Both the position numbers and the translations under genes were made by a program. Source: Bacteroidales bacterium (GTDB lineage: Bacteria; Bacteroidota; Bacteroidia; Bacteroidales; VadinHA17). From it: 64,000 nucleotides of DNA. Under the pieces are notes generated by a model, which did not search any database, was not told the DNA's origin, and saw only the letters and a list, made by a program, of their open reading frames with translations. The stretch is taken from positions 2,575-66,574 of the forward strand of contig DATALD010000051.1 of the NCBI GenBank assembly GCA_036261255.1, written 5' to 3'. Position 1 is the stretch's first letter, and each line of letters starts with the position of its first letter. Below are positions 13,071 through 43,327 of this stretch, piece by piece.

Positions 13071-13144
13071 TTTATAGTCTATAATTTTACCGTTGATAAA
13101 TCGTTTAATAAGGAGGTTATTGTAATTTTGAAAAAAAAACACTA

Positions 13145-13621
13145 GTGATAAAATCAAAAGTATATCTTTTTTTTATACTCTTTGTTGCTTATGTTTCATT
13201 CTCATGCAACAAAGAGAATGATGTAATTCCTGATGTTTATGTTGATTTCTATATTGATATCAACGATGCCAGGTATGTTACAAAACTAAGTTCGATTGGA
13301 GGATCTATTATAGTCAATCAATATACAACTAACGATCCGGATGCTGCAGGTTATGCTGGAAGTGGGATAATTATTGCAGCAGGAACTGATAATGAGTTCT
13401 ATGCTTATGACAGAACTTGTCCAAATGAATATTCGATTGATGGATCAGTTGTTCAGGTGAATATCGATCAAACATTGTTTGCAAAAGCGGTATGCCCGGA
13501 ATGCCAGAGCGCATACGAATTGTTGTCATTTGGAACACCTGCCTCAGGGATCAGTAAATATCCACTGAAAAACTATTCTGCAGATTTTGACGGCAGGTTT
13601 ATTCATGTATGGAATAAATGA
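13145..13621 (+). CDS. Hypothetical lipoprotein, possibly a degenerate Rieske-like fold
   Basis: GTG start and signal LFFILFVAYVSFSCNK. CPNE..(24 aa)..CPECQSAY..YPLKNY..DG.FIHVW resembles Rieske spacing, but both His ligands are replaced. Confidence 0.55.
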   Translation: MIKSKVYLFFILFVAYVSFSCNKENDVIPDVYVDFYIDINDARYVTKLSSIGGSIIVNQYTTNDPDAAGYAGSGIIIAAGTDNEFYAYDRTCPNEYSIDGSVVQVNIDQTLFAKAVCPECQSAYELLSFGTPASGISKYPLKNYSADFDGRFIHVWNK

Positions 13622-16031: not shown

Positions 16032-16129
16032 ACCTAAGTAAATTGATCAAATTTAGCAAAGCCCATGGAAATGAACCTGATTGTGCATTTTTTTTTGTAT
16101 TTTTATATTATCAAATGATTCATCGTGCG

Positions 16130-22562: not shown

Positions 22563-24092
22563 TTATTTTTTTGTTTTTTTATTTTTTGCCGCTGAGCTTT
22601 TGACACTTTTAGTTCCGGTATCTTCATGTTCAAACCCAACTTCAGATAATTCAAAAATATCGTCATCAATTATTGATTTGGCAGAGCTTCTATTCTCCTT
22701 CTTTTCCTTCGGTGTTTTATTTTCAGCTGATTTCTTTTTATTTGTTTTTTTTGTAGTGTTTTTCGATGGTGACAGTCTTGTTATTTTCCTGTTAAGCTTT
22801 TCTATTTCAGCAGCTTGCTTGCTTATTACCATATCTTTCTCAATGATCTCTGCGCCCATTTTATATAACTGATCCTGTTCATGAGTATCGGGGAAGTATT
22901 TGCTAAGCCTTATCTCAAAGTCGCTAAGTACATTCATAAAGTTCATGAAGGCATCGTAGGGGGTTTCATAAGGATTGAAGTAAGCATGTACTGCGCCATC
23001 AGAGAAAAACTTTGTGGCCATATAATAAAAATGATCACTGGCTTGCAGGTATTGCCAGTCTTTTTTAACCTGGTCATCAGTGCATTTGTCGACTTTTTCA
23101 GCAAGGCTGTAAAGTTTATCGAGGGCAGAGATCTGTAGTTCATTTCCCTGCCACGCAGTCAGGTCTCTTTCTTCATCGGCCCAGGAAATTGGAGAATGGA
23201 TTCCGATAGCAGAAACAGGTTGAAGCATATCAGCAATTTCTGAAGGAGTCATAAAACGGAATGGGGTTTTCCTGATAATGGCGCCAGGCAGATGTTCGAG
23301 AAAATCAAATATGCCGGTTTCTTCTGCGTTATGTTCGCCGAAAGTTTCGTAATCGAGAAATATATTCAGGAGTTCGCTTTTAGGAGCAAGCTTGCTGATC
23401 CATGTGGCATATTTATCGGCTGTTAATGGCCATTCATTCCATGTCCTGTTAGAAAACCTGAATGCAATATCATCGCTCAGAACAAAATTTCTCAGAAGTA
23501 CTTTAAGTCTTGGATTAATAAGGTTACAATAAAGAAAATTCGGGCTCTTCCATCCCAGGACATGTTTTGCTCCTTCAGTAAGCATTGCCTTGAACCCCAT
23601 ATCTGCAACCCATGCTCCTATCTCGTCAGAATAAATCAGTTCAGTGTTCCTGAAAGATTTAGCATCAACTCCAATGTAATTTTGAAGCATCTCCTTGTGT
23701 TGTACAACCTGTTTCTCAAATTCATTACGTGACTTGAGTGAAGCCAGAGAATGAGAGTTTGTCTCTGCAAGGAATTCAACCATGCCCGTTTCTGCGAGCT
23801 TCCTGAAGGATTCAAGGACGTCAGGAGCATAAAGTCTGAACTGGTTAATAACAAGCCCGGTAACTGAAAATGTAACTTTGAATTTACCTTTATGTTTATT
23901 CAGCAGACTGAGCAATACCTTGTTTGCAGGAAGGTAACATCTGTCTGCAACTTTCCTAAGAATTGATTCATTTGAATAATCATCATAATAGTAATGATCA
24001 TTGCCAATGTCGAAAAACCTGTACCTTTTAAGACGAAAAGGCTGGTGAACCTGGAAACACAGACAGATAGCCTTTTTATTGGAAATACTCAT
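22563..24092 (-). CDS. Glycoside hydrolase family 57 protein with ~105-aa coiled-coil/Lys-rich C-terminal tail
   Basis: ICLCFQVHQPFRLKRY.., YLPAN, FLAETNSHSLA and DYETFGEH are GH57-like blocks. The tail runs from about residue 405 (..KKTNKKKSAENKTPKEKKE..AAKNKKTKK). Confidence 0.85.
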   Translation of the reverse strand: MSISNKKAICLCFQVHQPFRLKRYRFFDIGNDHYYYDDYSNESILRKVADRCYLPANKVLLSLLNKHKGKFKVTFSVTGLVINQFRLYAPDVLESFRKLAETGMVEFLAETNSHSLASLKSRNEFEKQVVQHKEMLQNYIGVDAKSFRNTELIYSDEIGAWVADMGFKAMLTEGAKHVLGWKSPNFLYCNLINPRLKVLLRNFVLSDDIAFRFSNRTWNEWPLTADKYATWISKLAPKSELLNIFLDYETFGEHNAEETGIFDFLEHLPGAIIRKTPFRFMTPSEIADMLQPVSAIGIHSPISWADEERDLTAWQGNELQISALDKLYSLAEKVDKCTDDQVKKDWQYLQASDHFYYMATKFFSDGAVHAYFNPYETPYDAFMNFMNVLSDFEIRLSKYFPDTHEQDQLYKMGAEIIEKDMVISKQAAEIEKLNRKITRLSPSKNTTKKTNKKKSAENKTPKEKKENRSSAKSIIDDDIFELSEVGFEHEDTGTKSVKSSAAKNKKTKK

Positions 24093-24095
24093 ATC

Positions 24096-25394
24096 CTAAA
24101 CCTTTATTTTTTCTAATACACTGTAATAAATATCACGCACATGTCGAGCCGAATTATCCCATTTAAGCCTGATTACTTCCTCTTTACCATTGATAATAAA
24201 CATGTTGGCAAGAGCAGGATAATTGAGGATACCGTAAATAGCATCTGCCATGGCATCGATATCCCAAAAGTCAGTTTTAACAGCATGGGTCAGAATTTCT
24301 GCAACCCCCGATTGTTTGCTTATAATAACAGGGACATTCGATTGCATGGCTTCAAGTGGGGAAATGCCAAATGGTTCAGACACAGAGGGCATAATGTAAA
24401 CATCACTCATATAGAGCATTGAAAAAACATCTGCTCCCCTGAGAAACCCGGTAAAATGAAACCTGTCGGTGATTTTAAGAGCTGCTGCTCTCCTCATCAT
24501 CCTTTCCATCATATCACCGGAACCAGCCATCACGAATCTGACATTCTTCATTTTCTTTAGAACTTTATTCGCCGCTTCGATGAAATATTCAGGACCTTTC
24601 TGCATTGTTATCCTGCCAAGGAAGGTCACTACTTTTTCATCGAAGCCCTTTCGTACCATCATACTTTCTGATAAGCCTACACGGTCAACAGCATTATAAA
24701 CTGTTTCTACCTTTGCAGGATCAATATTATATTTATGTATAACAATATCGCGGGTAAGATTGCTCACTGTAATGATTTTCGCGGCAGCATCCATTCCTCG
24801 TTTTTCAATCCTGTAAACATCGGGGTTAACATTCCCTCCGCTCCTGTCGAAATCGGTGGCATGCACATGGATCACAAGAGGTTTTCCTGATACTTCCATA
24901 GCAGCAATACCGGCAGGATATGCAAGCCAGTCGTGGGCGTGAATGATTTCAAAATCGTTTTCTTCCGCAATTAAAGAGGCAACAACAGCATATTTCTCAA
25001 TCTCTTTCATCAGGTTCTGATCATATTTCCCTGAAAAGTCGATTGTGCCTTTATCGTTCACCTCAATAAACATGTTCCTTCCTGATTTTTCTTTTCGAGT
25101 AACCTTCCAGAAATTTTCAGGGTCGGTATATGGAATTATTTTAGATGATACTTCAATTTTTTCAAAAGATCTCCTAAATCCTTTATAGTATATTTTTTTA
25201 TATGCAACAGGTATCTGGTTAGCGCCTATAAGCCGTACAGTGGTTTCATCCTCGTCGCCCCATATTTTGGGAACAACAAAGATGACATCCACATCGTCAA
25301 GTGTGGCCATACCTTTTGTCAATCCATAACTGGCTGTACCCAATCCGCCGGAAATATGAGGCGGAAACTCCCATCCGAACATTAAAACACGCAT
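24096..25394 (-). CDS. Glycosyltransferase family 4 (GT-B, glycogen-synthase-like)
   Basis: MRVLMFGWEFPPHISGGLGTA.., HAHDW and C-terminal PSVSEPFGISPLEAM (E-x7-E region). I chose the ATG at 25394 because the track start at 25436 would overlap the upstream gene. Confidence 0.8.
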   Translation of the reverse strand: MRVLMFGWEFPPHISGGLGTASYGLTKGMATLDDVDVIFVVPKIWGDEDETTVRLIGANQIPVAYKKIYYKGFRRSFEKIEVSSKIIPYTDPENFWKVTRKEKSGRNMFIEVNDKGTIDFSGKYDQNLMKEIEKYAVVASLIAEENDFEIIHAHDWLAYPAGIAAMEVSGKPLVIHVHATDFDRSGGNVNPDVYRIEKRGMDAAAKIITVSNLTRDIVIHKYNIDPAKVETVYNAVDRVGLSESMMVRKGFDEKVVTFLGRITMQKGPEYFIEAANKVLKKMKNVRFVMAGSGDMMERMMRRAAALKITDRFHFTGFLRGADVFSMLYMSDVYIMPSVSEPFGISPLEAMQSNVPVIISKQSGVAEILTHAVKTDFWDIDAMADAIYGILNYPALANMFIINGKEEVIRLKWDNSARHVRDIYYSVLEKIKV

Positions 25395-25401
25395 ACCACA
25401 G

Positions 25402-27369
25402 CTATTGATTAGAATATTGAGTTTCAAGTATTTCAATTATACGTAAAATTTCTCCTACACTCCATGCCTGTGATATTGCGCCCCTGGGAAAGTGAGGAGG
25501 GTCACCATCGTAAATTTCGGAGATTGTTGTAATGCCATGTTCATTCATCACCTCCTCCATCCCATAAATAAGGTTTTTCACCCTTTGAACACCCTGTTTC
25601 CCATAGACTTTGAGCCAGCCTTCACAGAATGGACCAAAGAGCCATGGCCACACTGTTCCCTGGTGATAGGCAGAATCGCGTTCCTCCTGGTTTCCTTTGC
25701 ATACTCCTTTATAAAGACTGTTTCTTGGTGAAAGTGTTCTTAATCCCCTGACTGTGACAAGGTCCTTATCTGCTACATCGAGTACCTTTTTCATCTGTTC
25801 CTTATTGAGCATTGAATAAGGCAACGATGTAGCAATCAACATATTAGGTCGGATGAAGAAATTCTTTCCTTCTTCATCGTTTACATAGTCGGCCAGGTAT
25901 CCTCTTTCGTCGCTCCAGAAGAGTTCAAGGAATGATTTCATTATCAATTCCGGAAGTTTCCCGAATTCTTTTACAAATTTTCTGTCATTTGCTTTACCTG
26001 CCATATCGAGTGCAAAACAGACAGCATTATACCAGAGAGCATTGATTTCGACATCGTATCCGCTTCGCTGTGTTACAGGCACACCATCAACAACGGCATC
26101 CATCCAGGTAAGGGCTTTGCCAGGTGCGTCGGCATATATAAGTCCATTTTCTCTCATGTGGATGTTGAACATCGTACCTTTTGTGAATGAAGAAATAACA
26201 GATTTAGCGGCTTCTCCGTAAATTTCCCAGCAGTCGGTTCCTCCATGCAATATGAATTGCTGCAACGACCAGAAGAACCAGAGGGGAGCATCCAATGAAT
26301 TAAAAGCTGGGTTTTCTTCATCTCCCATGTTTGGAAACATGCCATTCTTCATTCTTGCCACCTGTGTATCCAAGACCTGTCTGTAAAGTATCTGGACATG
26401 CCTGGCGAGCGCCAATCCGGGTAGCGAAATAAACGTATCTCGTCCCCATGCTCCAAACCATGGATATCCTGCAATAATAAGGACTTTACCTGCACGTTTT
26501 TCAACGAACTGCTGGGCAGCATTCCGAAGGCAATTTTTGAAATTGTCCCTTGGTATCTTAGTTGATATTGTCTTTGTAAACTTTGGTTTGAATCCTGCAG
26601 GCTTTTCTTCGCGTGTTGAAGCAGAGAATACTATAACATCGTTCTTTTTTGCCTTAAACTCAAAGAAACCGGGCGTGAAAAGGTCTTCGCGGTAATCATA
26701 ACCTCTTTTTTGTTCCTCTGTATATTCAATCCCAAGGTACCAGTCTGGAACGGCGATGAAATCATTTTTACACGATAATTGAAGATTCAGGTAAGGAAAA
26801 CCTTCATACATCTTTGCTCTTATTCCATTTGTTACCGGTTCAACTTTTGTGTTGGCATTAAGATTAGAATGAGTAAGTTGATGAATATTCCTGAACGCAA
26901 GAAAAGGCCTCACCTGAATCTTCATAGGTTCAGATGCTTCGAGAATTGTAAACCTGATAAGGAATTGCTCCTCATAATGAACCATTAATCTTTCCTGCTT
27001 AAGGATAACATTCCCAACCCTGTAAATTCTTGACGTATCGGAAAGAAAATCCTCAATATATTTATGACCTTTAGGACTGAAATGGTCATCACCATATTTT
27101 CTTATTCCAATATTGAAACTCTTCTCTTTATTCTGAATGATGACATCCATTGAGGACAGTAATACATATCTCTCTCCCCCAAACTGGTCTATTGGGCAAA
27201 CCAGAAGCCCATGATATTTCCTTGTATTACAGTCGACAATAGTTGTTGAGTAATAGGAACCAGCCCTGTTTGTCCTTAAAACTTCCCTTGAAAGAGAGTA
27301 CTCAAGATTAACAATCTGATTCTTGTCGAACTTAATATAAGCCATAAGATTACTGTTTTCCTTGATCAA
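25402..27369 (-). CDS. Glycogen debranching enzyme family protein (amylo-alpha-1,6-glucosidase domain)
   Basis: 655 aa. N-terminal RKYHGLLV, then GYPWFGAWGRDTFISLPGL and a C-terminal (alpha/alpha)6-like block ..YHQGTVWPWL.G.F.. Confidence 0.85.
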   Translation of the reverse strand: MIKENSNLMAYIKFDKNQIVNLEYSLSREVLRTNRAGSYYSTTIVDCNTRKYHGLLVCPIDQFGGERYVLLSSMDVIIQNKEKSFNIGIRKYGDDHFSPKGHKYIEDFLSDTSRIYRVGNVILKQERLMVHYEEQFLIRFTILEASEPMKIQVRPFLAFRNIHQLTHSNLNANTKVEPVTNGIRAKMYEGFPYLNLQLSCKNDFIAVPDWYLGIEYTEEQKRGYDYREDLFTPGFFEFKAKKNDVIVFSASTREEKPAGFKPKFTKTISTKIPRDNFKNCLRNAAQQFVEKRAGKVLIIAGYPWFGAWGRDTFISLPGLALARHVQILYRQVLDTQVARMKNGMFPNMGDEENPAFNSLDAPLWFFWSLQQFILHGGTDCWEIYGEAAKSVISSFTKGTMFNIHMRENGLIYADAPGKALTWMDAVVDGVPVTQRSGYDVEINALWYNAVCFALDMAGKANDRKFVKEFGKLPELIMKSFLELFWSDERGYLADYVNDEEGKNFFIRPNMLIATSLPYSMLNKEQMKKVLDVADKDLVTVRGLRTLSPRNSLYKGVCKGNQEERDSAYHQGTVWPWLFGPFCEGWLKVYGKQGVQRVKNLIYGMEEVMNEHGITTISEIYDGDPPHFPRGAISQAWSVGEILRIIEILETQYSNQ

Positions 27370-29879: not shown

Positions 29880-30623
29880 TTGAAAGAAAAAGGGAAAATA
29901 TATTTTGCGTCAGATTTCCACCTGGGATTAGCAGCAGGATCGCTTCCAATTGAAAGAGAAAAGAGAATAGTATCATGGCTTGATAAAAGCAGGGCTGATG
30001 CCACAGCTTTTTACCTGCTTGGTGATATCTTTGATTTCTGGTGGGAGTACAGGAAGGTTGTTCCAAAAGGGTTTACAAGGTTTCTTGGTAAAATATCTGA
30101 AATAACAGACACTGGAATACCTGTTCATTTCTTCACAGGAAACCATGATATGTGGGTATTGGATTATTTTCGGAATGAATGCGGAATGATAGTGCATACC
30201 GGCCCGGTAATCGAGAAATTCGACGGCAAAACTTTTTATCTTGCTCATGGAGAAGGACTTGGATCGAATGATAAAGGGTATGCCTTTCTCCTCGCAATCT
30301 TTCGTAACAAACCTTTGAGAAAGATGTATTCAGCGCTCCACCCAACGATAGGAATGGGCATTGGACACAGCTGGTCACTAAATTCAAGACTTGCTAAGGG
30401 TATAAAAAGAGACTTTCTTGGTGAAGATAAGGAAGATCTTATCAGATATGCAAAAATGGTTTTGAAGAATGAGAAAGTTGACTATTTCATATTTGGCCAT
30501 CGGCATCTCGGAATGATTCACGATCTTGGACAGGCCAGGGTGATTCTTTTAGGCGACTGGATAAAAGGTGGAAGCTTTGCAGTATGGGATGGAGAAAGAG
30601 TTGAACTTACGAGTTTTGATTAA
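29880..30623 (+). CDS. lpxH: UDP-2,3-diacylglucosamine diphosphatase (LpxH family metallophosphoesterase)
   Basis: IYFASDFHLG, YLLGDIFDFWWEY, FFTGNHDMW, AHGEG and FGHRH. TTG start, so the exact start is uncertain. Confidence 0.85.
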   Translation: MKEKGKIYFASDFHLGLAAGSLPIEREKRIVSWLDKSRADATAFYLLGDIFDFWWEYRKVVPKGFTRFLGKISEITDTGIPVHFFTGNHDMWVLDYFRNECGMIVHTGPVIEKFDGKTFYLAHGEGLGSNDKGYAFLLAIFRNKPLRKMYSALHPTIGMGIGHSWSLNSRLAKGIKRDFLGEDKEDLIRYAKMVLKNEKVDYFIFGHRHLGMIHDLGQARVILLGDWIKGGSFAVWDGERVELTSFD

Positions 30624-31728
30624 CTTTTTCTTCCACTTTTACATTAAGCATATAATAAGAATAGAGGTCATTTATCCTGTCAAAATCATAATCAAGCTTG
30701 CTCCCTGATTTTCTTGCCATCTCAATTAACCCCATATTACCTGTACTTTCAGTTTCAGTAGTCTGGCTTGATAAGGATTTCCTGAATAGTTCTTTTAAAC
30801 CAAGCTTGTCATATTTATTAATGATATCTATCTTATCTTTTAAAAAGCCTACATTCTCATTAAGAATCAGATTCCCTGTAGTAAGTGAGAAGACCTTGTC
30901 TTCCATTCTGATCATGGCCATTGGCATACCATATTGTTCTTCAGGGATCCTGCCAGGGCTGTATTTTGAGACATTCTCAAGAATCTCGACAAGTATACTG
31001 AATACTTTCCTTCGAACATTTGAGGCGACATCATCTTCACTAAGCTTTGTTTCTGTAAATGATATCACTTCTTTACCTATGTCTGGTGAAATATGTCCCG
31101 ACCAGATAAGATAGAGGTTGCTCTCTGCCATAATTTTCTCAAGTTGAGAATAGGACACCCCACTAAAAGTATTTTCTGCATCTTTATGAATACCCATTCC
31201 CCCTGAATCAACTGTTTTGCTAAGGACAAAATATGAATACTCATCATCTATTTTTACAAAATCGTAATCGAGTTTATTTCCTGTTTTTTTTGCCATCTCA
31301 ATTAAACCAAGGCCAGCTCCGCCCTTTGTACTGAACTCAGATGAACTCAGCATGCGACGGTATACATTTCTAATGTCTTTATTTTCAAGCTTATTAACTG
31401 CATCAAGCTTTCGTTTAAGATCTTTCTTAGCTGAGTTTGGCAGGACATTACCTGTTGTGACTGTGTAGCCTGTAGAAGTTTTGGAATATACAACAAGCGA
31501 CATATTTGCGTGCCTGTTATTAAGGCTATGCCTTGATACGTTCTGGAGACTCTCAAGAACAAACATGAACAGTCGCTTTCTTCCGACAAAACCAAATTCA
31601 GAATTCTCCATCTCCTTTTCGAGAAGCATCAATAATGGAACTGAATTTTCATTTGTGACGATGCCGCGATAGACAAACATGAGATTCTCCTTCATCATTT
31701 TGTCGCGGATAAGACGGGTTAACTCCAT
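30607..31728 (-). CDS. Internally duplicated GHKL-type (SiaB/DUF6272-like) putative protein kinase
   Basis: Two homologous halves of about 186 aa. Each carries a ..(F/I)(V/L)ES/EILQNVS(R/K)(H/Y)S core helix and ends in GLIEMA(K/R)K(T/S)G(N/S)KLDYDF..(I)(D/N)D.YSY(F/Y). The family assignment is from memory and needs an HMM search. Confidence 0.6.
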   Translation of the reverse strand: MELTRLIRDKMMKENLMFVYRGIVTNENSVPLLMLLEKEMENSEFGFVGRKRLFMFVLESLQNVSRHSLNNRHANMSLVVYSKTSTGYTVTTGNVLPNSAKKDLKRKLDAVNKLENKDIRNVYRRMLSSSEFSTKGGAGLGLIEMAKKTGNKLDYDFVKIDDEYSYFVLSKTVDSGGMGIHKDAENTFSGVSYSQLEKIMAESNLYLIWSGHISPDIGKEVISFTETKLSEDDVASNVRRKVFSILVEILENVSKYSPGRIPEEQYGMPMAMIRMEDKVFSLTTGNLILNENVGFLKDKIDIINKYDKLGLKELFRKSLSSQTTETESTGNMGLIEMARKSGSKLDYDFDRINDLYSYYMLNVKVEEKVNQNS

Positions 31729-31928
31729 TGAGAATGGGTCAGTTTTGATTCCTCATAAAATTAAAATAAATTGATTAATTCACCCACAAAATGAAAAAAA
31801 TTCATCATAAATGATTAAACTTTAAAAAAAGTTAAAAAAAATGGACCTTGTTTTTCCAATATACAATAATTATCATTACGTTTAATCGCAATAATGATTG
31901 GTTTAATAAATGTGAAGTTTTTGTCTGT

Positions 31929-32813
31929 ATGAAGAAAAAGAACGAAGATTACGCTTTTCTGGAGGAATTAGTACAGAGAGGCGGGCCTAAAGAATCAGAA
32001 TATGAGAAGTTTACATCTATTGTTGATAACCTCGAACCTTCTGAGATCACCAGATTCAGGGAAGATGTCAATCCTGTTTTGAATGAGAATACCCTTATTG
32101 GTCATGCTTATGTTAAGCCTTATGGATATCCGGGTGATTTCCTTCTAATTGACTATATTTATAATTTTAAAGTCAACGAGGATGAACGATACCGTAACTG
32201 GGATTTGTTTTTCCAGAACCAGGCAGGTGCAAATGCAGTAAGAAACAGGAAAGATTATTTTGTCAGATATTGCAGTGAAATCTCAAAATCGAGGAATAAT
32301 CCTAAAGTTCTTATTCTTGGTTCCGGGCCAGGATCTGATGTTTATGAGTTTTTCTCAACATATCCCAATGCAAATATCAGCTTTGATCTGATTGATTTTG
32401 ACCAGGCGGCAATTGAGTTTTCTAAAGAAAGAAATAAAGTATTCAATGATAAAATTTCTTACTATAGAATAAATGCGCTTCGCTACAACTCGCTTAAGCT
32501 TTATGATCTTATTTGGAGCGCTGGTTTATTCGATTACTTCAAGGACAAGCATTTCAATTTCCTTGTCAGGAAGTATTATCATTGCCTTACTGAAGATGGA
32601 GAAATGATAATTAGTAATTTCAGCACAAGGAATCCAACAAAGAAACTGATGGAACACCTTTCTGACTGGTATCTTAACTTAAGAACAGAATCTGACCTTT
32701 ACAGAATTGCATCAGAGGCAAATATTGATAAGGAACTCGTTAGTATTGATAAAGAACCTCTAGGAGTCAACCTGTTTCTTAGGATTAAGAAAAATCACCT
32801 AAAAAAAATATAA
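31929..32813 (+). CDS. Class I SAM-dependent methyltransferase
   Basis: Motif I VLILGSGPGSD, acidic loop DLIDFD, post-I/II IWSAGLFDYF, and an N-terminal KPYGYPGDFLLIDYIY segment. I chose the ATG at 31929 (MKKKNEDYAF) over the track TTG at 31848. Confidence 0.75.
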   Translation: MKKKNEDYAFLEELVQRGGPKESEYEKFTSIVDNLEPSEITRFREDVNPVLNENTLIGHAYVKPYGYPGDFLLIDYIYNFKVNEDERYRNWDLFFQNQAGANAVRNRKDYFVRYCSEISKSRNNPKVLILGSGPGSDVYEFFSTYPNANISFDLIDFDQAAIEFSKERNKVFNDKISYYRINALRYNSLKLYDLIWSAGLFDYFKDKHFNFLVRKYYHCLTEDGEMIISNFSTRNPTKKLMEHLSDWYLNLRTESDLYRIASEANIDKELVSIDKEPLGVNLFLRIKKNHLKKI

Positions 32814-32822
32814 AGAAAACAG

Positions 32823-34802
32823 ATGTTCACTCTGCTGAAAAAAATAGCGACTCCTTTTTTCGGCACTCGTTCTTTAAACAAGAACGAGATGAATCTAAAT
32901 TATTTAACCCTGTCTTTTAAAGGGGAGGAGGCAAGTTTTGAAAAAGATTTCCAGGATGACTACTTCAAAAAATCGCTGTGGCATTTCAGGTTTTCGCTCA
33001 TCCTTTCAATGATCTTTTATGCCTCTTTTGCATTCCTCGATGCAAATATGGTTCCCTCACTAAAAGAAAAATTCTGGTTCATCAGATTCGTAGTTGTGTT
33101 TCCGGCGCTGGGGCTTGTTTACGCATTATCATTTGCAGGTTTCTTCAAGAAATATATGCAGCTAATAATCGCGTCGATAATGTTCATTACAGGCTTCGGA
33201 ATTATCATCATGAACGTTTTCGCATCAAGAATTGCCGTTCACACATATTATGCGGGTCTTATTCTCATTTTCATCTTCGGATACACTTTTATCAGGGCCC
33301 GCTTCATCTATGCATCTCTTGCCGGATGGTCAATAGTATTGTTTTACGAGATTTCAGCTACCGTATTAACATCAACCCCGGTGCAGATACTTGTGAATAA
33401 TAACTATTTTTTCATTAGCGCGAATCTTATCGGAATGTTTATTGCGTATTTTCTTGAGCTGTCTGCCAGGTCAGAATTTTATGTGAGGGTGCTTTTGGAA
33501 CGCGAGAAAGAAAACGTTAAAATTGCAAACAATGCTCTTGAAAAAAGAGTATTGGAAAGAACTGAACAGCTATACAACGCCAACCTCGATCTTAAAAAGG
33601 AAATAGAAATACGCAGGAAATTTGAAACCGAGAGAGCCGAACTTGAAAAACAACTTTTTCAACTTCAGAAAATGGAGACAATCGGCACCCTTGCAGGCGG
33701 TATTGCTCATGATTTTAACAACATATTAACCCCAATACTCGGGTACACCGATATGGCACTTGAAGAACTTCCCGTAGAGAGCAATCTTCGCTTTGATATA
33801 GAGCAGATAAATAATGCAGCCGTCAGAGGAAAAGACCTTGTTCAGCAGATTCTTACATTCAGCCGTGAAGTTGATTTCAACAAAAAGGCTATTAAGCTTC
33901 AACCAATAATTTCTGAAACCCTGAACCTTCTTAAAGCATCGTTGCCACCCGGGATAACGATAAAACAATCACTTGATCCACGTATTGGAACAGTGCTGGC
34001 CGATCCTACGCACATTCACCAGATCGTTATGAATCTTTGCACAAACGCAAATCATGCAATGCTTGCCAAGGGCGGTGTACTTGAGGTAAAACTCGATTCA
34101 GTGAGAATTGATCAGAAACAGGCTGACAAGATAAGAAACCTTAAAAAGGGAGAATACGTGTGTCTTACTATTTCAGATACTGGTCATGGGATGGACATTA
34201 AGACAAAGGAAAGAATTTTCGAACCTTTTTTTACACGTAAAGAAGTTGGGTTGGGTTCCGGTCTGGGCCTTTCAGTAGTTCATGGCATTGTAAATAATTA
34301 TGGCGGAGCAATTGAAGTTGAATCAAGCCCCGACAAGGGAACAACCTTCAGAATATACTTGCCACAATCAGGTTCTGATCCTGGTGAGTCAGATAAACTC
34401 GATAAAAGGCCTGTTAAAGGAGTTGAACATATTCTGTTTGTTGATGATGAACCCGAGATAATATTTATGGGTAAAAAGATGCTTGAAAACCTTGGATACA
34501 AAGTATCGATAAGAAGCGACAGTCAGGCTGCTCTTGAAGAATTTAAAGCTCATCCAGATAAGTATTCACTCCTCGTAACTGATCAGAATATGCCCGTTTT
34601 ATCAGGCACTGATCTTGCCAGGGAAATGCATCAAATAAGGCCGGAGTTCAAAATAATTATTATTACCGGTTTTGCAGATAATCTCTCGGATGAGATATTG
34701 ACAAGCCATGGCGTTTCAGAAGTTATTCTTAAACCCATGATCCTTGACGATTTCAGTAAAGTAATCAGGAGAGTACTAGATAAGAAACAAATAAAGAACT
34801 AA
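32823..34802 (+). CDS. Membrane-bound hybrid sensor histidine kinase / response regulator
   Basis: About 6 TM helices (residues ~50-215) and a coiled coil. H-box GGIAHDFNNIL, N/G boxes (NLCTNANHAM, DTGHGMD, GLGSGLGLS) and a C-terminal receiver (ILFVDDE..LVTDQNMP). Confidence 0.9.
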   Translation: MFTLLKKIATPFFGTRSLNKNEMNLNYLTLSFKGEEASFEKDFQDDYFKKSLWHFRFSLILSMIFYASFAFLDANMVPSLKEKFWFIRFVVVFPALGLVYALSFAGFFKKYMQLIIASIMFITGFGIIIMNVFASRIAVHTYYAGLILIFIFGYTFIRARFIYASLAGWSIVLFYEISATVLTSTPVQILVNNNYFFISANLIGMFIAYFLELSARSEFYVRVLLEREKENVKIANNALEKRVLERTEQLYNANLDLKKEIEIRRKFETERAELEKQLFQLQKMETIGTLAGGIAHDFNNILTPILGYTDMALEELPVESNLRFDIEQINNAAVRGKDLVQQILTFSREVDFNKKAIKLQPIISETLNLLKASLPPGITIKQSLDPRIGTVLADPTHIHQIVMNLCTNANHAMLAKGGVLEVKLDSVRIDQKQADKIRNLKKGEYVCLTISDTGHGMDIKTKERIFEPFFTRKEVGLGSGLGLSVVHGIVNNYGGAIEVESSPDKGTTFRIYLPQSGSDPGESDKLDKRPVKGVEHILFVDDEPEIIFMGKKMLENLGYKVSIRSDSQAALEEFKAHPDKYSLLVTDQNMPVLSGTDLAREMHQIRPEFKIIIITGFADNLSDEILTSHGVSEVILKPMILDDFSKVIRRVLDKKQIKN

Positions 34803-34808
34803 TAAATA

Positions 34809-35204
34809 ATGTCAAAGATACTTGTATTTGATGATGAGCCGTCCATCCTGCTGATGATAAAGAAGATGCTTGAAAAAGCAGGCCATGAGGTTGATGTAGC
34901 TCTGAATGCCAAAGAAGGGATGGTTATTTTTAATAAAAACATACCAGACCTTCTGATTACAGATATTATTATGCCTGAGAAAGAAGGATTGGAAACAATT
35001 TTCGAACTTCGGAGATTACATCCGAAACTAAAAATAATTGCAATTTCCGGTGGAGGCAGAATAGGTCCCGAGGGCTACCTTCCCGGAGCTAAGTTGCTCG
35101 GAGCCAATGCTGTTTTTGCCAAACCGCTAATCCCAAAAGACTTCCTGAAAGCTGTAGCTGACCTGCTTGGAGAAGACAAGAATAAGTTACATTATGTTCT
35201 ATAG
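34809..35204 (+). CDS. Single-domain (CheY-like) response regulator
   Basis: 131 aa. ILVFDDE..LLITDIIMPEKEGLE..IAISGG..KP. Starts 6 nt after the hybrid kinase. Confidence 0.9.
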   Translation: MSKILVFDDEPSILLMIKKMLEKAGHEVDVALNAKEGMVIFNKNIPDLLITDIIMPEKEGLETIFELRRLHPKLKIIAISGGGRIGPEGYLPGAKLLGANAVFAKPLIPKDFLKAVADLLGEDKNKLHYVL

Positions 35205-35729
35205 ACAAGCGGTTAATCGGCAGCTGGAACAAAAAGACTGGCTTTTCTGATCAATATCTTCTACATAGGTTACTGACCTCATTACGCAGGTTGGTACATT
35301 ACAATGCCTGAGCCCAAGCATGTGCCCAAGCTCATGGATAACCTCTTTTCTGAAACGGTTTAAATACAGTAAATCATCCTTCTTCATTCCATATAGCTCG
35401 TTGTCAAGCCTGAATGATGATGCAATACCGCTACGACCATTAAGATAAGCCTGCCCTAATATAAATGTAAGAATCGGAATGAAAATGTCAACATTGAATA
35501 ATCCAAGTGTCTTGAAACTATCTGAGCCATAAGAATAATCGATCTTCTTTAAGAGCTTGTTACCATCATACTGCCTTCGGGCTGCATCATAGAACTCCGT
35601 AAGATCAAGGTGTGCTTCCTTAAGTTCAACATGTAGCCTGAATTCATTCACAACAGCTTCTTTTATCATTCCAAGAAATTCATTCTCAAAATGACCAAAA
35701 TAAATAAGTCTTATTTTATGGGGATCCAT
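35199..35729 (-). CDS. Archaemetzincin-type zinc metalloprotease (peptidase M54 family)
   Basis: HELGHMLGLRHCNVPTCVMRS..(16 aa)..CSSC (35220-35336) closely matches the archaemetzincin signature HEXXHXXGX3CX4CXM...CXXC. Size is 176 aa. Confidence 0.8.
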   Translation of the reverse strand: MDPHKIRLIYFGHFENEFLGMIKEAVVNEFRLHVELKEAHLDLTEFYDAARRQYDGNKLLKKIDYSYGSDSFKTLGLFNVDIFIPILTFILGQAYLNGRSGIASSFRLDNELYGMKKDDLLYLNRFRKEVIHELGHMLGLRHCNVPTCVMRSVTYVEDIDQKSQSFCSSCRLTACL

Positions 35730-35751: not shown

Positions 35752-37086
35752 CTAATTACTCTTTAGTCCGTACTTTGCTATTTTATTGTACAAAGTAACC
35801 CTGTCTACCTTAAGCGCCTTCGCCGCCCGAGAAATATTCCAGCCATATTTTTCAAGAATCAGGCTAATATGGCTTTTTTCAAGATCATCGAGACTTTCGG
35901 CTATATTTCCAGCAGCAGTTTTTTCAATAGGGAGATCTGATATTGTTATCTTTTTCCCATTTCCAATGACTATTGCTCTTTCAATCATGTTTTCCAATTC
36001 ACGAACATTCCCGGGGAAAGAATAGTTTTTCAGCCTTTCAATTGCAGTCTTATCAATGCTCACTTCAGTCCTGTTCATCGAATTGCAGTATTTCTTTGTG
36101 AAGTAATCGATAAGTAATGGGATATCCTCTTCCCTTTCCCTTAATGGCGGTATTTTTATGTTCACAACATTCAGCCTGTAGTACAGATCTTCCCTGAATG
36201 ATCCTTCGTCTACCATCGCTTTCAGGTCCCTGTTTGTCGCACAGATAACCCTGAAATCAGACGATATTTCTTTGTTACCTCCTACCCTCGTAAATCTTTT
36301 TGTTTCAAGAACCCGCAGAAGATCAATCTGCATCTTAACAGATATCGTGGCTATCTCATCAAGAAAAATTGTTCCGTTGTCAGCCATCTCAAACCTTCCC
36401 TTCCTGTTATACATGGCGCCTGTAAAAGCTCCTTTTTCATGCCCGAAAAGCTCACTTTCGAGGAGACTTTCTGATAATGCTCCGCAATGAACGCTGACAA
36501 GCGGGAAAAACTTGCGTGACGAATTTGAATGGATAGCTCGTGCCACAAGTTCCTTACCTGTACCGCTCTCACCAGTAATAACAACTGATGAATTTGATTT
36601 CGAAACACTTTCAATTGCTGAAAGCACCTTCCTCATTGGTTCACTCCTGCCTACCAGGTCATCAATATTTTCGAGACTGACAACCTTCTGCTTTAACGAC
36701 TCATTCTCTTCAACAAGTTTAACCTGCCTCGATGCATTCCTTATCAGGTGAGTAAGATCATCGGGATCAAAAGGTTTGGTTATATAATCAAAAGCGCCAT
36801 CCTTAAGAGCCCTTACAGCAGTGTCGACAGTAGCAAAAGCTGTCATTATTATAATTAATGCATCAGGCCTTAGCTGCTTGATTCGTCGCATCATTTCAAG
36901 ACCATCCATACCAGGCATCTTTATATCTGCAAGAATAATATCAAAATCACCCGACTCAATCATTGTCAGGGCTTTCCCGGCATTTTCAGCACAATCAACC
37001 CTGTACCCGTCTTCCTCGAACCAATTTAATAATGAATCCCTTACAGATTCTTCGTCATCTACGATCAGTATTGATATTGTTTTCAT
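35752..37086 (-). CDS. Sigma-54-dependent response regulator (NtrC family)
   Basis: Receiver (ILIVDDE..ILADIKMPGMDG), AAA+ domain with Walker A GESGTGKE and the GAFTGA motif, and a C-terminal Fis-type HTH. Confidence 0.93.
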   Translation of the reverse strand: MKTISILIVDDEESVRDSLLNWFEEDGYRVDCAENAGKALTMIESGDFDIILADIKMPGMDGLEMMRRIKQLRPDALIIIMTAFATVDTAVRALKDGAFDYITKPFDPDDLTHLIRNASRQVKLVEENESLKQKVVSLENIDDLVGRSEPMRKVLSAIESVSKSNSSVVITGESGTGKELVARAIHSNSSRKFFPLVSVHCGALSESLLESELFGHEKGAFTGAMYNRKGRFEMADNGTIFLDEIATISVKMQIDLLRVLETKRFTRVGGNKEISSDFRVICATNRDLKAMVDEGSFREDLYYRLNVVNIKIPPLREREEDIPLLIDYFTKKYCNSMNRTEVSIDKTAIERLKNYSFPGNVRELENMIERAIVIGNGKKITISDLPIEKTAAGNIAESLDDLEKSHISLILEKYGWNISRAAKALKVDRVTLYNKIAKYGLKSN

Positions 37087-37102: not shown

Positions 37103-37160
37103 AGTGACTAGAGTGACTAAAGCAAGGAGTGACTAAAGTTGTCATATTAAGAGAGTTATG
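37103..37160. repeat. Inverted copies of the CATAACTCTAGTCACT repeat family
   Basis: AGTGACTA(G/A)AG occurs 3 times (37103, 37112, 37128), plus AGAGTTATG (37152-37160). These are the reverse complement of pieces of the 16-mer tandemly repeated at 18274-18305. The tract overlaps the stop codon of the kinase gene. Confidence 0.7.
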
Positions 37161-38826
37161 TTGTTATGAGGGGAAGGAGGATTGACATAGTGGTGCCTTT
37201 ACCTGGTTCTGTAGTAACATCGATCTGCCCGTTGTGGTTTTTGATAATACCATGAACTATTGCCAGGCCGAGTCCGATTCCTGAAGCCTGGTGTTTTGTT
37301 GAAAAGAACGGTTCGAAAATATGTGGGAAATCATCTTCTCTTATTCCTACTCCATTATCTGCTATATCAATCCTTATATTTCCGCTATCCGGATTTGAGG
37401 TGCCGATTATTATTTCACCATCTGTTGTTATAGCTTCCATAGCGTTAACTATTATAGCTATGCATGCCTGTTTTATCTGGTTGGAACTGCAAAAAACAGT
37501 ATCTGATACAGCAGCAAGGTTAGTTGTGAACCTGATGTTGGCCATTGTCACAGGATGCATCATAAGTTCATACGTCTCCGTTAGAATGTTATTTATATGT
37601 TTTTGTTCAAAATCTTCTTTTTCTTTCCTCGAGAAATCAAGCAATCCTTTTACTATTTCACCACATCTCTTCGTCTCTGCCTCAATAAGCTTAAGATGCC
37701 TGAGCATTGATTCGCGTTTTGAGGCATACACCTCCGGATTGTTTAATTGTTTATGAATCAGCTTTGTGTAAATGAGTATTCCTGACAAGGGATTATTGAG
37801 TTCATGAGCAACAGAAGATGAAAGTTTTCCAAGCGAAGCAATCCTCTCAATATGGATAAGCTCATTCCTGGCAGCACCAAGCTCTTCCGACTTTTTTCTC
37901 ACTTTATATTCGAGCTGTTGTGACCAGTTCTTAAGCTCTTCATTTGCAGCCTGCAACTTGTCCAGCATTTCATTAAAAGCAACAGAAACTGTTCTCATGT
38001 CATCGAGCTGCTGAGGCTTTATATCAAGCCTTGTTGCCTTATCGCCACCAGCCACAGCGAGACTTGCTTTGATAATATTATTAAGCGGCTCTTTAATTTC
38101 CCTCCTGGTAAAAACTATCAGAGTTACTATTAATAACAAGGTAATAATAGTTGCAATGAAATAAAATCTCGCAGACGATTGGCGAACCGTGTTATCAAGA
38201 TCTTCAAGGGGCATCTTGATTATTAATGATCCCAGGATAGCTTCAGATTCCTGATGAGCATGGCATGAAGCTGTGTAACACGATCGTTCATTCAGAATTG
38301 GAGATCTTATAAGAAGATGCCTGTGTGTATTGTCATTTTTATTCATTACGCAATCATTATTAACAGGCATTATCCTGTAGGACTTTTCCTTTGCCGGGAA
38401 CATTGAAGACAGGTTTGTATGGCACGACCGGCAATCAGGATTGCTTTGAGAAGAAGCCATGGTACTTACAGAAGAATAGATAAGGCTGTCGTCTTCATTG
38501 TACATATTAACAGCATCAATACCAGACATAGTATGTATCTGATCGAGAGTATTCTGGAGCATGCTTTTATCATTCTCAAGCATCGAATAATAAAGCGATC
38601 CTTCCACTATTGAGCCTATGTTATTACCATTCTGCCTGATTACGTTGTTAAGGTTATTTTCATAAACAGACTTGAATATGATCCCAAGAGATACAAACAG
38701 GATGATTGATGAAATAGTAATAATGAATACGACACGGCCGTATATTGTCGACCTGAACCTTACATACTGTTTAAATTTTCTTCCTGAATCTCTTTCTCCC
38801 AAAATATTTCCTTGTCCCTGAATCAT
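37156..38826 (-). CDS. Sensor histidine kinase (TM - periplasmic Cys/His-motif domain - TM - HAMP - HisKA - HATPase)
   Basis: TM1 at ~31-52 and TM2 at ~221-240. The periplasmic loop contains CRSCH and CYTASCH. H-box SSVAHELNNPL and G boxes DNGVGI / GIGLGLAIV. Confidence 0.9.
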   Translation of the reverse strand: MIQGQGNILGERDSGRKFKQYVRFRSTIYGRVVFIITISSIILFVSLGIIFKSVYENNLNNVIRQNGNNIGSIVEGSLYYSMLENDKSMLQNTLDQIHTMSGIDAVNMYNEDDSLIYSSVSTMASSQSNPDCRSCHTNLSSMFPAKEKSYRIMPVNNDCVMNKNDNTHRHLLIRSPILNERSCYTASCHAHQESEAILGSLIIKMPLEDLDNTVRQSSARFYFIATIITLLLIVTLIVFTRREIKEPLNNIIKASLAVAGGDKATRLDIKPQQLDDMRTVSVAFNEMLDKLQAANEELKNWSQQLEYKVRKKSEELGAARNELIHIERIASLGKLSSSVAHELNNPLSGILIYTKLIHKQLNNPEVYASKRESMLRHLKLIEAETKRCGEIVKGLLDFSRKEKEDFEQKHINNILTETYELMMHPVTMANIRFTTNLAAVSDTVFCSSNQIKQACIAIIVNAMEAITTDGEIIIGTSNPDSGNIRIDIADNGVGIREDDFPHIFEPFFSTKHQASGIGLGLAIVHGIIKNHNGQIDVTTEPGKGTTMSILLPLITT

Positions 38827-38921: not shown

Positions 38922-40583
38922 TCAGATAATTTCATAAAACCAAACTTGTTTTGAAGGATCGATAATTTTGATTTGAAATTCTTCCCAGGCTTCAGGGCTC
39001 ATCTCAGAAAGGAAACCCTCATACAACATTCCTCCATCCTGAAGAGCAATCGCAAGATTTTCCTGCTTACTTACGAGCGAGGCAAGCATATCTTTTATTT
39101 TCACAAGCTCACCTGTGATGAACTGTTTATGTTTTTCAGTCATGAAAAGAAGCTGGTTTTCGCGCTGCCAGTTGTCAGGTTCAATCATGTAAACCCAGCC
39201 TTCAGAGTATGGGGAATTGTTTATTATCGAGGGATCAGATCCAACCAGGGAGTTTCTTCTGCGGATCGTTCCTGTTACGGGTGAATAGAGCGAGATCTTT
39301 TTCCCGTTCTGAACAAGAGATAACAATACTTCGCCTTTCTTTACTTTATCACCTTCATTTTTCATCTCGATCCTGTTAAGCGGACCAGTGAGCCTCAGAA
39401 TAAAGTCATCTATACCTGTTCTTACATACCCGTTCTGTTCAAGGAAAGCCCAGGTATGAGTCTTATCGAAATACATTCCTGCCGGAAAAATCAGGGTATT
39501 TTCATTAAGAGCCCTGCGAGGCAGGTTTTCAATGATTCCGTCAGCAGGTTTTCGTCTGAACATTCGAGCTGCAAATTGGAAAAGCAGCAAAACTGCAATT
39601 AGTGCACCAATGAATATAAATATTCCTTTAAAAACTGACTTTTGGACGGGATTATCGATTATAGCCGGAATGCCGACTATTCTATCATTTATTGAAACCT
39701 TTTCAGTTGGAAGAATTGTAGTAAAACCTGATTTCTCAATTGTTTCCTGGCCTTCGTTCAGAATAAAGTCAAGAAAAGATTTTGCCTCCTTGTTTTCAGA
39801 GACCGGCATGATAAAATAAATATTTGAATAGAGGCTTTTTTGATATTTCCCGATCCAGACGCCTCTTGTAAACGAAGTAATGTCTTTGAATATGTTTTCA
39901 CTATAGTCAAGTGATCCATTGCCGTCTTTATCTAAAGGTAACAGGTTAATACTTCTCATCAACGAAGTATCGCTGGAATATTGTATGTCGCTAAGCCGGC
40001 AAAAACCGATTGAGTATTTGTCTTCCATAACAGATTTAAGCATTTGCCTTGAATCTTCCGGAAGAACAACATCAATATTTTCCGTTGGCCCTGTAATGCG
40101 TGCTATACTTTCAAGAACGACCTTGTCTTTTGCAACATGCATTGTAATCCTGTCTGCAGCATTGCCTCCCAGGAGATAACCCCAGTTAGCCTTGCTCCTG
40201 TCCTTCATTGCTTCCTGCAGCTTATCTGAAGGAATTCCTTCAGACATTATTGCATCCATGTAAGGGTTCTTTGAATTGAATACAGTTACAACAATGTTGC
40301 GACCTATTACAAACCTTAAATACTCATTACTGGAAAAATCTACAGGATGTTCGCTGCTAACAATTGCCACACTTCCATTTAATGTAATCCCTTTAACAGA
40401 ATCGTTCAGTTCTGTTATAACAATGCTATTCTGACCAGACTTGTAGCTTTTAGCCCATTCACTTGCAAGGTCTTTAATATCTGCAGAACATAGAACATTA
40501 AGTGAGTCCTTATCACCTTTTGAACCTGACACTTTTAAATTTGCAGCAGCCAGCATTATCAGCAAATAGATAATTTTCTTCAT
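38922..40583 (-). CDS. Fusion protein: periplasmic PstS/PhnD-like substrate-binding domain - single TM - cytoplasmic GcvH (glycine-cleavage H / lipoyl-carrier)-like domain
   Basis: Signal peptide. PBP-like region (..IVSSEHP.., YSIGFCRLSDI, LLPLDKDGNG). TM at 318-337 (FKGIFIFIGALIAVLLLFQF). Residues ~365-470, MYFDKTHTWAF..GYVRTGIDDF....G..V.KGEVLLSLVQNGKKISLYSPVTG.....N......P..IN..PY.EGWVYMIEP, follow the GcvH pattern. Confidence 0.65.
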   Translation of the reverse strand: MKKIIYLLIMLAAANLKVSGSKGDKDSLNVLCSADIKDLASEWAKSYKSGQNSIVITELNDSVKGITLNGSVAIVSSEHPVDFSSNEYLRFVIGRNIVVTVFNSKNPYMDAIMSEGIPSDKLQEAMKDRSKANWGYLLGGNAADRITMHVAKDKVVLESIARITGPTENIDVVLPEDSRQMLKSVMEDKYSIGFCRLSDIQYSSDTSLMRSINLLPLDKDGNGSLDYSENIFKDITSFTRGVWIGKYQKSLYSNIYFIMPVSENKEAKSFLDFILNEGQETIEKSGFTTILPTEKVSINDRIVGIPAIIDNPVQKSVFKGIFIFIGALIAVLLLFQFAARMFRRKPADGIIENLPRRALNENTLIFPAGMYFDKTHTWAFLEQNGYVRTGIDDFILRLTGPLNRIEMKNEGDKVKKGEVLLSLVQNGKKISLYSPVTGTIRRRNSLVGSDPSIINNSPYSEGWVYMIEPDNWQRENQLLFMTEKHKQFITGELVKIKDMLASLVSKQENLAIALQDGGMLYEGFLSEMSPEAWEEFQIKIIDPSKQVWFYEII

Positions 40584-40886: not shown

Positions 40887-41600
40887 TTATTGTATCTGTT
40901 CTAAATCTTCAACTTTTATAAATTTCAAAAGCTCAGGTTTGAATCTTACACTTTTATAAAGTGATGAGTCTTGTAAGACATTATGTATCCCATCTATTGA
41001 AGACTGCATAATTCCATATCCTTCAACATTAAAATTCTTATTTATTGTAGGTTTGAAATACTCGACTAAATTGTCACCTATCATTCCATAAGTTTGCATA
41101 CTATAATACACTCGAGTTTTATTGTTATTAAGTTGAACAGAAGCAGCAACATTTGGAAGATTATCAATAGCTATCCCGTTTTTTACTCTTTTGAATAAAT
41201 AATGGAGTGAATAACCACATCCATAAACACTATCGTTATAAACACCTGTTTCTATGTAATAAACATTCACATTTGACTCTTTATTCTCCAACTTCACACC
41301 ACCAAAGCCAGGAATAGTTAAGCCTGCATTATGATCACCATCATAAATTTTTACAACCATGCGCATCTTTTCCAAATCATTTCTAGATTCTGGAATATGT
41401 TTCTTTACGACATTCTGTTCATTATCTGATTTTATGGGTACAGAGCTTCTTGAATCAACTACTCTAAATATAGAATCATTGAGAAAACCCTGAAAGTCCT
41501 CAAGCGCAAGTTTGTTACCACTAAATGAACATCTTGTAAAATTGAATAACAAGAACATAAAAAAAGACACCAAAAGGAAAGTTGATTTAAATGTTTTCAT
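40887..41600 (-). CDS. Hypothetical secreted protein or lipoprotein (orphan), AT-rich gene
   Basis: 237 aa with N-terminal signal FLLVSFFMFLLFNFTRCS. I recognise no family. Visibly more AT-rich than its neighbours, and it has its own terminator. Confidence 0.6.
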   Translation of the reverse strand: MKTFKSTFLLVSFFMFLLFNFTRCSFSGNKLALEDFQGFLNDSIFRVVDSRSSVPIKSDNEQNVVKKHIPESRNDLEKMRMVVKIYDGDHNAGLTIPGFGGVKLENKESNVNVYYIETGVYNDSVYGCGYSLHYLFKRVKNGIAIDNLPNVAASVQLNNNKTRVYYSMQTYGMIGDNLVEYFKPTINKNFNVEGYGIMQSSIDGIHNVLQDSSLYKSVRFKPELLKFIKVEDLEQIQ

Positions 41601-43232: not shown

Positions 43233-43327
43233 AATTGTAGCACACATTTGGAAATGCAGCATCAAATTATGAAGAATTTGTCAAAGAGCAATCAAATAAT
43301 CCCTGAAAAGTTGAGCCTGGCTCTTAA

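Follow-up and report, generated by a model that had tools for sequence, protein, structure and literature searches.

Which of the neighbouring signalling genes at one Bacteroidales locus belong together, and what might the unit they form do? The question arises from the window analysed here, the 64,000-nucleotide (nt) stretch spanning positions 2,575 to 66,574 of contig DATALD010000051.1 in the assembly GCA_036261255.1 of a Bacteroidales bacterium (VadinHA17 lineage). In its middle, a gene for a tandem SiaB-like kinase diverges from three genes encoding an S-adenosylmethionine (SAM)-dependent methyltransferase (MT), a hybrid sensor histidine kinase (HK) and a stand-alone receiver (REC), and an earlier note on the sequence had read all four as one signalling island that, together with an adjoining sigma-54 operon, would make up a 10-kb signalling stretch. 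The comparative data indicate otherwise: the conserved unit is the three-gene operon MT-HK-REC (31929-35204), and the SiaB-like gene is a lineage-specific neighbour of this cassette that belongs to a separate conserved backbone. The main result, a connection absent from the earlier note, is that homology links the MT to PhcB and the sensor domain of the HK to PhcS, which together are a synthase and its receptor (PMC8578825); the catalytic and phospho-acceptor residues are intact and the linkage of the genes is near-universal. Judged from these sequence relationships, MT-HK-REC is probably a Phc-like signal synthase-receptor cassette, with MT and HK forming a synthase-receptor pair in the Phc sense.

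The cassette lies on the plus strand and is tightly packed. Its first gene, MT (31929-32813, 294 residues; Pfam Methyltransf_31/25/12), encodes a short-form PhcB-like class I SAM-dependent methyltransferase and is followed, after gaps of 9 and 6 nt, by HK (32823-34802, 659 residues; Pfam and NCBIfam) and REC (34809-35204, 131 residues; Pfam Response_reg). The HK begins with a sensor domain of about six transmembrane segments (residues ~31-240, nt ~32913-33542) that is related to the MASE8 domain of PhcS, hydropathy placing some six hydrophobic segments at residues 55-214. A coiled coil then leads to a HisKA domain whose H-box carries the phospho-acceptor H296 (33708-33710), and a HATPase_c domain (residues 394-515) and a fused receiver (Response_reg, residues 537-648) complete the protein. 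REC is a CheY-like receiver domain alone, without an output domain, and its residues D8/D9, D52, S80 and K105, read from the sequence, are all intact. The two receivers resemble each other, with 71% nucleotide identity over 49 nt between their beginnings (34441-34489 in HK, 34828-34876 in REC) and 34% identity between the proteins, which suggests that they are paralogs.

Upstream of the cassette lies an AT-rich divergent intergenic region of 200 nt (31729-31928, read from the sequence), which presumably holds the cassette promoter and, in the lineage of the window, the promoter of the SiaB-like gene as well. The 200 nt are counted from the start of the SiaB-like gene to the ATG of MT at 31929; only 119 nt separate it from an in-frame TTG at 31848, which would extend the MT to 321 residues. 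As the MT homologs begin at the ATG, the TTG is probably not the start. A scan for promoter-like and terminator-like sites between 29.8 and 36 kb returned counts within the shuffled expectation and no enrichment of sigma-70-type sites, so that the operon structure rests on spacing and conserved gene order. Up to this point the description in the earlier note agrees with the present one, both in its four open reading frames (30607-31728 on the minus strand; 31848/31929-32813, 32823-34802 and 34809-35204 on the plus strand), its divergent region of 119-200 nt and its gaps of 9 and 6 nt, and in its assignment of a SiaB-family tandem GHKL-like protein, a non-CheR class I methyltransferase, a hybrid kinase with about six transmembrane segments and a CheY-like receiver; the tight three-gene operon, too, is supported by spacing and gene order.

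How firmly are these three genes tied to each other? Relatives of the MT, scanned for in one genome per GTDB species, occur in 229 species genomes, and the best 80 loci, from which all locus counts given here are taken, belong nearly all to metagenome-assembled genomes (MAGs) of Bacteroidales or other Bacteroidota from soil, fen, peat, sediment and digesters; every cassette locus retrieved comes from a MAG, and the window sequence itself stems from a soil metagenome. An HK gene stands directly downstream of MT in every one of the 80 loci, and a stand-alone REC immediately follows HK in 76 of the 77 loci that could be evaluated. Furthermore, unbiased clustering of the open reading frames returned MT, HK and REC as the only gene families common to all loci. 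The median length of the cassette MTs is 300 residues. One locus, on contig JBLNAO010000124.1, is labelled as a Chloroflexota MAG and has LpxH, the SiaB-like gene, the cassette and the sigma-54 operon in the same order as the window. This kept arrangement, with proteins 72-79% identical to those of the window, suggests that the contig comes from Bacteroidales and was misbinned, rather than that the cassette occurs in Chloroflexota.

The homology of the MT to PhcB is supported by several comparisons. Ralstonia PhcB itself is absent from the best 120 matches, and orthologs from Cupriavidus, Massilia, Janthinobacterium and Paraburkholderia with phcBSRQ architecture served as proxies. The best full-length plasmid match to the MT by tblastn is the PhcB-type gene of Paraburkholderia graminis, and BLASTP aligns the MT with the Paraburkholderia PhcB-type protein at 27% identity over 304 columns (E 2e-28; PhcB residues 159-457). 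At the level of families, hhalign relates the MT family to the PhcB family with 99.8% probability (E 5.8e-28, 237 columns), a reversed control giving nothing, and the motifs KPxGYxGD, RNR, GxGP, AGLFDY, NP and WYL are invariant in both. Within the family, the relationship is closest to the cassette MTs: when PhcB proteins are compared with 230 members of the MT family, cassette MTs make up 18-24 of the top 25 matches (median 92 bits, versus 75-79). JGI, moreover, gives close homologs of the MT the name under which KEGG lists PhcB, 'extracellular factor (EF) 3-hydroxypalmitic acid methyl ester biosynthesis protein'.

The predicted structure fits a small-molecule enzyme. Modelled with AlphaFold2 (pLDDT 88.9), the MT adopts the fold of small-molecule methyltransferases, with a helical cap. 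The fold search put 3OCJ first, a Bordetella protein that is uncharacterised, and O-, N- and C-methyltransferases from natural-product pathways next; with an uncharacterised protein as the top match, the structure search gave no substrate assignment. The family is broad: at E <= 1e-30 an exhaustive search found 230 representatives, and with the threshold relaxed to E <= 1e-10 it found 2077, most of them about 300 residues long. Some members are fused to acyl-CoA dehydrogenase, ACP, KAS III, fatty-acid desaturase, PilZ or helix-turn-helix domains, and the fusions to fatty-acyl enzymes suggest that the substrates of the family are of a fatty-acyl or lipid type. A relationship between the N-terminal extension of PhcB and PilZ, as present in one of these fusions, was considered and none was found. 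Two loci outside the cassette clade show the family in other surroundings. On plasmid p1 of Rhizobium binae (3716-4753), a 345-residue MT of the same broad family is divergent from a GGDEF-EAL gene and has no downstream kinase, an arrangement also present on about 116 other Rhizobium plasmids; elsewhere, a distant family member is followed by a GGDEF fragment in a stretch resembling a conjugative element (ParB, TraX, ArdC).

These properties also bear on whether the MT might act on a protein. In such a scheme it would methylate the HK or a receiver, in the manner of CheR-based adaptation, for which one could cite its co-transcription, as judged by spacing, with a kinase and a receiver, and the weak matches of some distant family members to the CheR SAM-binding domain. 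However, the MT of the window has no CheR match at E <= 0.01 in Pfam or NCBIfam, its fold is that of small-molecule O-, N- and C-methyltransferases, and its homolog PhcB is a small-molecule methyltransferase; methylation helices of the type found in methyl-accepting chemotaxis proteins are absent, as is CheB. Methylation of a pathway protein is thus hardly to be expected here.

The second line of evidence concerns the kinase. BLASTP aligns the HK colinearly with a PhcS-type protein from the transmembrane region through the catalytic core (residues 72-516 versus 41-444, E 4e-25). For the sensor domain itself, the profile of the HK transmembrane-domain family matches that of the PhcS MASE8 domain with 89% probability (E 2.2e-6, 197 columns) and a score of 47.4. 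The controls stayed well below this: the reversed profile scored 15, column shuffles reached no more than 18 and shuffles of 22-column blocks no more than 30, and none of eight unrelated membrane proteins exceeded 19. Since the result with the Pfam MASE8 model is not decisive, the homology of the sensor rests on this controlled profile-profile comparison.

The phcBSRQ operon, known from the Ralstonia solanacearum species complex and from Cupriavidus, encodes a methyltransferase, a sensor histidine kinase and then receiver proteins without DNA-binding domains (PMC8578825, PMC11960443). Specifically, PhcB is the methyltransferase that makes the signal, methyl 3-hydroxymyristate or methyl 3-hydroxypalmitate (PMC8578825, PMC11960443), PhcS is the sensor kinase, with H230 (PMC11960443), PhcR combines a receiver with a histidine kinase domain, and PhcQ, also a receiver protein, lacks a DNA-binding domain (PMC8578825, PMC11960443). 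This precedent also qualifies one statement of the earlier note: a non-CheR methyltransferase is indeed the first gene of a two-component operon in the window, but the arrangement is less atypical than the note had held, because the phcBSRQ quorum-sensing operon has the same methyltransferase-first architecture (PMC8578825). We saw the phcBSRQ-type order in Cupriavidus, Massilia, Janthinobacterium and on a Paraburkholderia plasmid. The Cupriavidus locus encodes a methyltransferase of 463 residues, a kinase with MASE8, HisKA and HATPase domains (443 residues), a protein with receiver and histidine kinase (381 residues) and a receiver protein (332 residues), and on the P. graminis plasmid the order is methyltransferase (468 residues, 68% identical to the Cupriavidus proteins), kinase (445 residues), receiver (134 residues) and receiver (344 residues).

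Set side by side, the two systems have in common the order of a SAM-dependent methyltransferase, a membrane sensor kinase and one or more receivers without a DNA-binding domain; the homology of the MT to the catalytic region of PhcB; the homology, at the profile level, of the sensor of about six transmembrane segments to the PhcS MASE8 domain; and the position of the HisKA histidine just past the transmembrane and coiled-coil region (H296 in the cassette HK, H230 in PhcS; PMC11960443). They differ in that the cassette occurs in Bacteroidota rather than Betaproteobacteria, that its MT has 294 residues as against 463-468 in PhcB, the N-terminal ~155-200 residues of PhcB being missing, and that its HK gives no significant match to the Pfam MASE8 model and, being hybrid, carries a receiver domain that has no counterpart in PhcS. 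Furthermore, the 131-residue REC stands in place of PhcR (receiver and histidine kinase domain) and PhcQ (about 330 residues), and no PhcA-type LysR protein is encoded near the cassette, within the 64 kb of the window. What would be new relative to Phc is that the synthase is truncated, the kinase hybrid and the relay another one, that PhcA is missing from the surroundings and that the phylum differs; the synthase core and the sensor are apparently retained.

In the corresponding model, the MT, through its PhcB-like catalytic region, would methylate a fatty-acid-derived carboxylate, or a metabolite of similar, lipid-like character, and so yield a product that is more hydrophobic and able to diffuse. 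This product would partition into the membrane and be sensed there by the MASE8-like domain of about six transmembrane segments, and its binding would alter autophosphorylation of the HK at H296. The phosphoryl group could then pass from H296 to the fused receiver, to the 131-residue REC or to both, and REC, like PhcQ a receiver without a DNA-binding domain, would depend for its effect on partner proteins whose genes lie elsewhere. We infer that the HK has the MT product as its ligand, and likewise the chemical nature of this product, density dependence and the output of the system. More specifically and more tentatively, the cassette may represent a distant, streamlined relative of Phc that is widespread in Bacteroidales and whose signal, methylated, fatty-acid-derived and possibly volatile, is detected by the MASE8-like hybrid kinase; we regard this fuller picture as plausible, though with somewhat less than even chances.

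Several observations weigh against a Phc-like cassette. The MT aligns only to PhcB residues 159/202-459, so that it does not have the full-length architecture of PhcB (~463-468 residues), and identity within the aligned part is just about 27%. For the sensor, the Pfam MASE8 model has no match in the window HK and only weak matches in 6 of 38 relatives, 17 of which match the generic six-transmembrane model AC_N. The kinase core and the receivers show a generic likeness to PhcS, PhcR and PhcQ that is no closer than that of the other two-component proteins of the window, and REC resembles the PhcR and PhcQ receivers no more than it resembles the window's own NtrC receiver; the specific relation to Phc thus does not extend beyond the synthase core and the membrane sensor. 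Distant members of the MT family, outside the cassette clade, are not paired with such a kinase, so that family membership by itself implies no signalling role. Regarding regulation, the 260 nt upstream of MT contain no motif common to the 79 loci compared, which leaves the cassette without a conserved autoregulatory motif; a TAnnTTTG motif is present in only 18 of them, the window not included. LysR-type proteins (HTH_1/LysR_substrate, PhcA-like) are encoded nowhere in the window, and the window sequence occurs only in soil-metagenome DNA runs and in no RNA run.

The main rival account takes the MT, instead of a signal synthase, for a target under regulation or an enzyme of detoxification or metabolism. 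Here a lipid of external or membrane origin, for instance a free fatty acid, would be sensed by the HK, and the co-transcribed MT would modify or neutralise it by esterification, with no cell-cell signalling involved. The conserved linkage of MT and HK, the lipid-associated fusions of the MT family and the membrane-embedded sensor serve such a sense-and-modify module equally well, and the family members that occur elsewhere without kinases indicate that the enzyme has non-signalling uses. Against it stands the fact that PhcB/PhcS, the one homologous gene pair to have been characterised, encodes a synthase and its receptor (PMC8578825). Moreover, the cassette contains no transcriptional output through which the HK could induce the MT, which is promoter-proximal in the same operon. 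On balance, a detoxification or metabolic module appears unlikely.

The logic of a Phc-like synthase-receptor cassette has parallels beyond Phc. In the alpha-hydroxyketone systems CqsA/CqsS of Vibrio and LqsA/LqsS of Legionella, the gene of an autoinducer synthase likewise adjoins that of a polytopic-membrane sensor kinase for a hydrophobic, fatty-acid-derived signal that is perceived in the membrane, and CqsS is a hybrid kinase with a C-terminal receiver. The synthases CqsA and LqsA, however, are pyridoxal phosphate-dependent acyl-CoA transferases and not methyltransferases; the likeness to the cassette drawn here is one of logic. The alpha-hydroxyketone system Lqs is described in PMC10653808, where phc is described as restricted to Betaproteobacteria in a survey that covered Proteobacteria only.

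If the Phc-like account is correct, the cassette would constitute a family of cell-cell signalling systems in Bacteroidota of anaerobic soil, peat, sediment and digesters, and Phc-type signalling would extend beyond the Betaproteobacteria. To our knowledge, a well-defined autoinducer system of their own has not been described for Bacteroidales, and dedicated self-signalling is poorly defined in Bacteroidota; work on Phc signalling, with its methyl esters of 3-hydroxy fatty acids, has dealt almost only with Ralstonia and Cupriavidus. In the literature searched, no paper connects PhcB-type systems with Bacteroidetes, although the automated, KEGG-style protein names already hint at the connection. 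A synthase-receptor cassette conserved across more than 200 Bacteroidales species genomes presents a directly testable hypothesis, and it would show how a quorum-sensing module can be rebuilt by keeping the synthase core and the membrane sensor while changing the phosphorelay.

Does the SiaB-like gene belong to this module after all? It could be argued that the SiaB-like kinase acts together with the cassette, for instance by phosphorylating REC or the MT, and perhaps with the sigma-54 system too: the gene and the cassette are divergent and have a common 200-nt intergenic region, the same configuration is present in 23 related genomes, and the lack of a canonical SiaC or PP2C partner nearby makes an unconventional target conceivable. 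The gene order, however, is conserved for one part of the proposed island only. It holds for MT-HK-REC (80 of 80 and 76 of 77 loci), but of the 71 evaluable loci just 23 have the SiaB-like gene as divergent neighbour of the cassette; 2 more have it at a distance of 5-6 kb, with other genes inserted between, and in 45 it is absent within 10 kb upstream. In 25 loci, forming another clade, the divergent neighbour is instead a NapC/NirT-cytochrome + FGE-sulfatase gene. The sigma-54 operon adjoins the cassette in some 4-6 of the 80 loci, 4 times on the side on which the window has it and 2 times on the opposite side.

The SiaB-like gene, in turn, is faithful to other neighbours. On other contigs its homologs form part of a backbone of the order GH57, glycosyltransferase (GT), glycogen debranching enzyme (GDE), TlpA, TlpA, LpxH and SiaB-like gene, the last convergent with LpxH, and the side that faces LpxH, TlpA and the glycogen genes persists even in two loci without the cassette (L087 and L088). 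The far side varies, with acyltransferase and PFL genes in L087 and a ComM-like Mg-chelatase gene directly abutting the SiaB-like gene in L088 (5366-8116, the Mg-chelatase gene immediately preceding). In the window, the ComM-like gene (41694-43265) is about 10 kb away, and the cassette, the sigma-54 operon and a 237-residue open reading frame without a Pfam match (40887-41600) lie between the two. The region from 31.8 to 41.6 kb of the window is accordingly a variable block of independent modules, and the supposed island is a lineage-specific juxtaposition that is not demonstrably mobile: no direct or inverted repeats flank the block, and no tRNA genes were found in the window. The idea of one four-gene island or 10-kb signalling unit does not survive this comparison, and joint action of the SiaB-like kinase with the cassette seems to us quite improbable. 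For annotation, it follows that the adjoining SiaB-like kinase and sigma-54 operon are not to be taken as parts of the same system.

The SiaB-like protein is nonetheless unusual in its own right. The gene (30607-31728, minus strand; 373 residues), whose 3' end overlaps LpxH by 17 nt, encodes a tandem-duplicated GHKL-like protein of the SiaB family (NF038262; PF19788, DUF6272, twice). The NCBIfam model SiaB_fam_kinase NF038262 scores 241 bits (cutoff 85), which places the duplicated protein in the SiaB family as the earlier note had supposed, and the SiaB equivalog model NF038264 gives 100 bits with a cutoff of 225 and so does not assign it as a SiaB ortholog. The two halves are 31% identical (E 1e-28) and the repeat is also visible at the DNA level, so that the internal duplication is real. 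Its best solved relative is SiaB in the SiaB-SiaC complex 6KKO (sequence E 1.5e-7; TM-score 0.73 as fold target), followed by anti-sigma kinases of the SpoIIAB and UsfX types and by PDK/BCK. Each half has an N-box with invariant Glu and Asn (E59/N63 and E248/N252); the glycine-rich lid reads GGAGLG (GAGLGL), as in SiaB, in the first half and TGNMGL in the second.

SiaB of Pseudomonas aeruginosa phosphorylates SiaC at T68, the PP2C phosphatase SiaA being its counterpart in this partner switch, and Glu61 is the predicted catalytic residue of SiaB (PMC7647112). The resemblance to this SiaABCD system lies in the protein itself, as each half belongs to the SiaB family and 6KKO is closest by both sequence and fold. 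It differs in being a tandem protein of 373 residues, as against 181 in SiaB, and in its surroundings, the conserved neighbours being LpxH and TlpA-like genes and SiaC, SiaA and SiaD being missing from the window. Specifically, a Pfam scan of the window's open reading frames of at least 70 residues found no SiaC (DUF1987), STAS or PP2C (SiaA) domain, in accord with the earlier note, and the diguanylate cyclase SiaD (GGDEF) is likewise missing from them; SiaC, SiaA and SiaD are also absent beside the homologs in L087 and L088. The protein may be an orphan kinase of the partner-switch type, or a covalent pseudo-dimer of one, whose target would be encoded elsewhere, outside the window, and the analysis also flags a large family of tandem SiaB-like proteins without the canonical SiaA, SiaC and SiaD partners.

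The adjoining sigma-54 two-component operon, on the minus strand, is real, as the earlier note had it. Its first gene (38922-40583) encodes a 553-residue protein whose N-terminal part weakly resembles periplasmic solute-binding proteins and which also has a membrane segment and, at its C-terminus, a GcvH-like domain of the lipoyl-carrier type, and is followed by genes for a HAMP kinase (37156-38826), an NtrC-type regulator (35752-37086) and an M54 archaemetzincin (35199-35729). It is unusual to find a GcvH-like domain associated with a two-component system.

Further features of the window lie outside the variable block. On the backbone side, a 1407-residue fusion of glycogen synthase, DUF3417 and alpha-glucan phosphorylase (18321-22544, minus strand) is surrounded by a glycogen cluster comprising a branching-enzyme-like gene (16043-18151), GH57 (22563-24092), GT (24096-25436) and GDE (25402-27369). 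Beside an S-adenosylhomocysteine hydrolase gene (13650-15065) stand two adjacent open reading frames of about 150 residues without a Pfam family (12702-13157, minus strand; 13145-13621, plus strand). Finally, two tandem rhomboid-family genes occupy 56220-57850 on the plus strand, the second with a C-terminal DUF6576.

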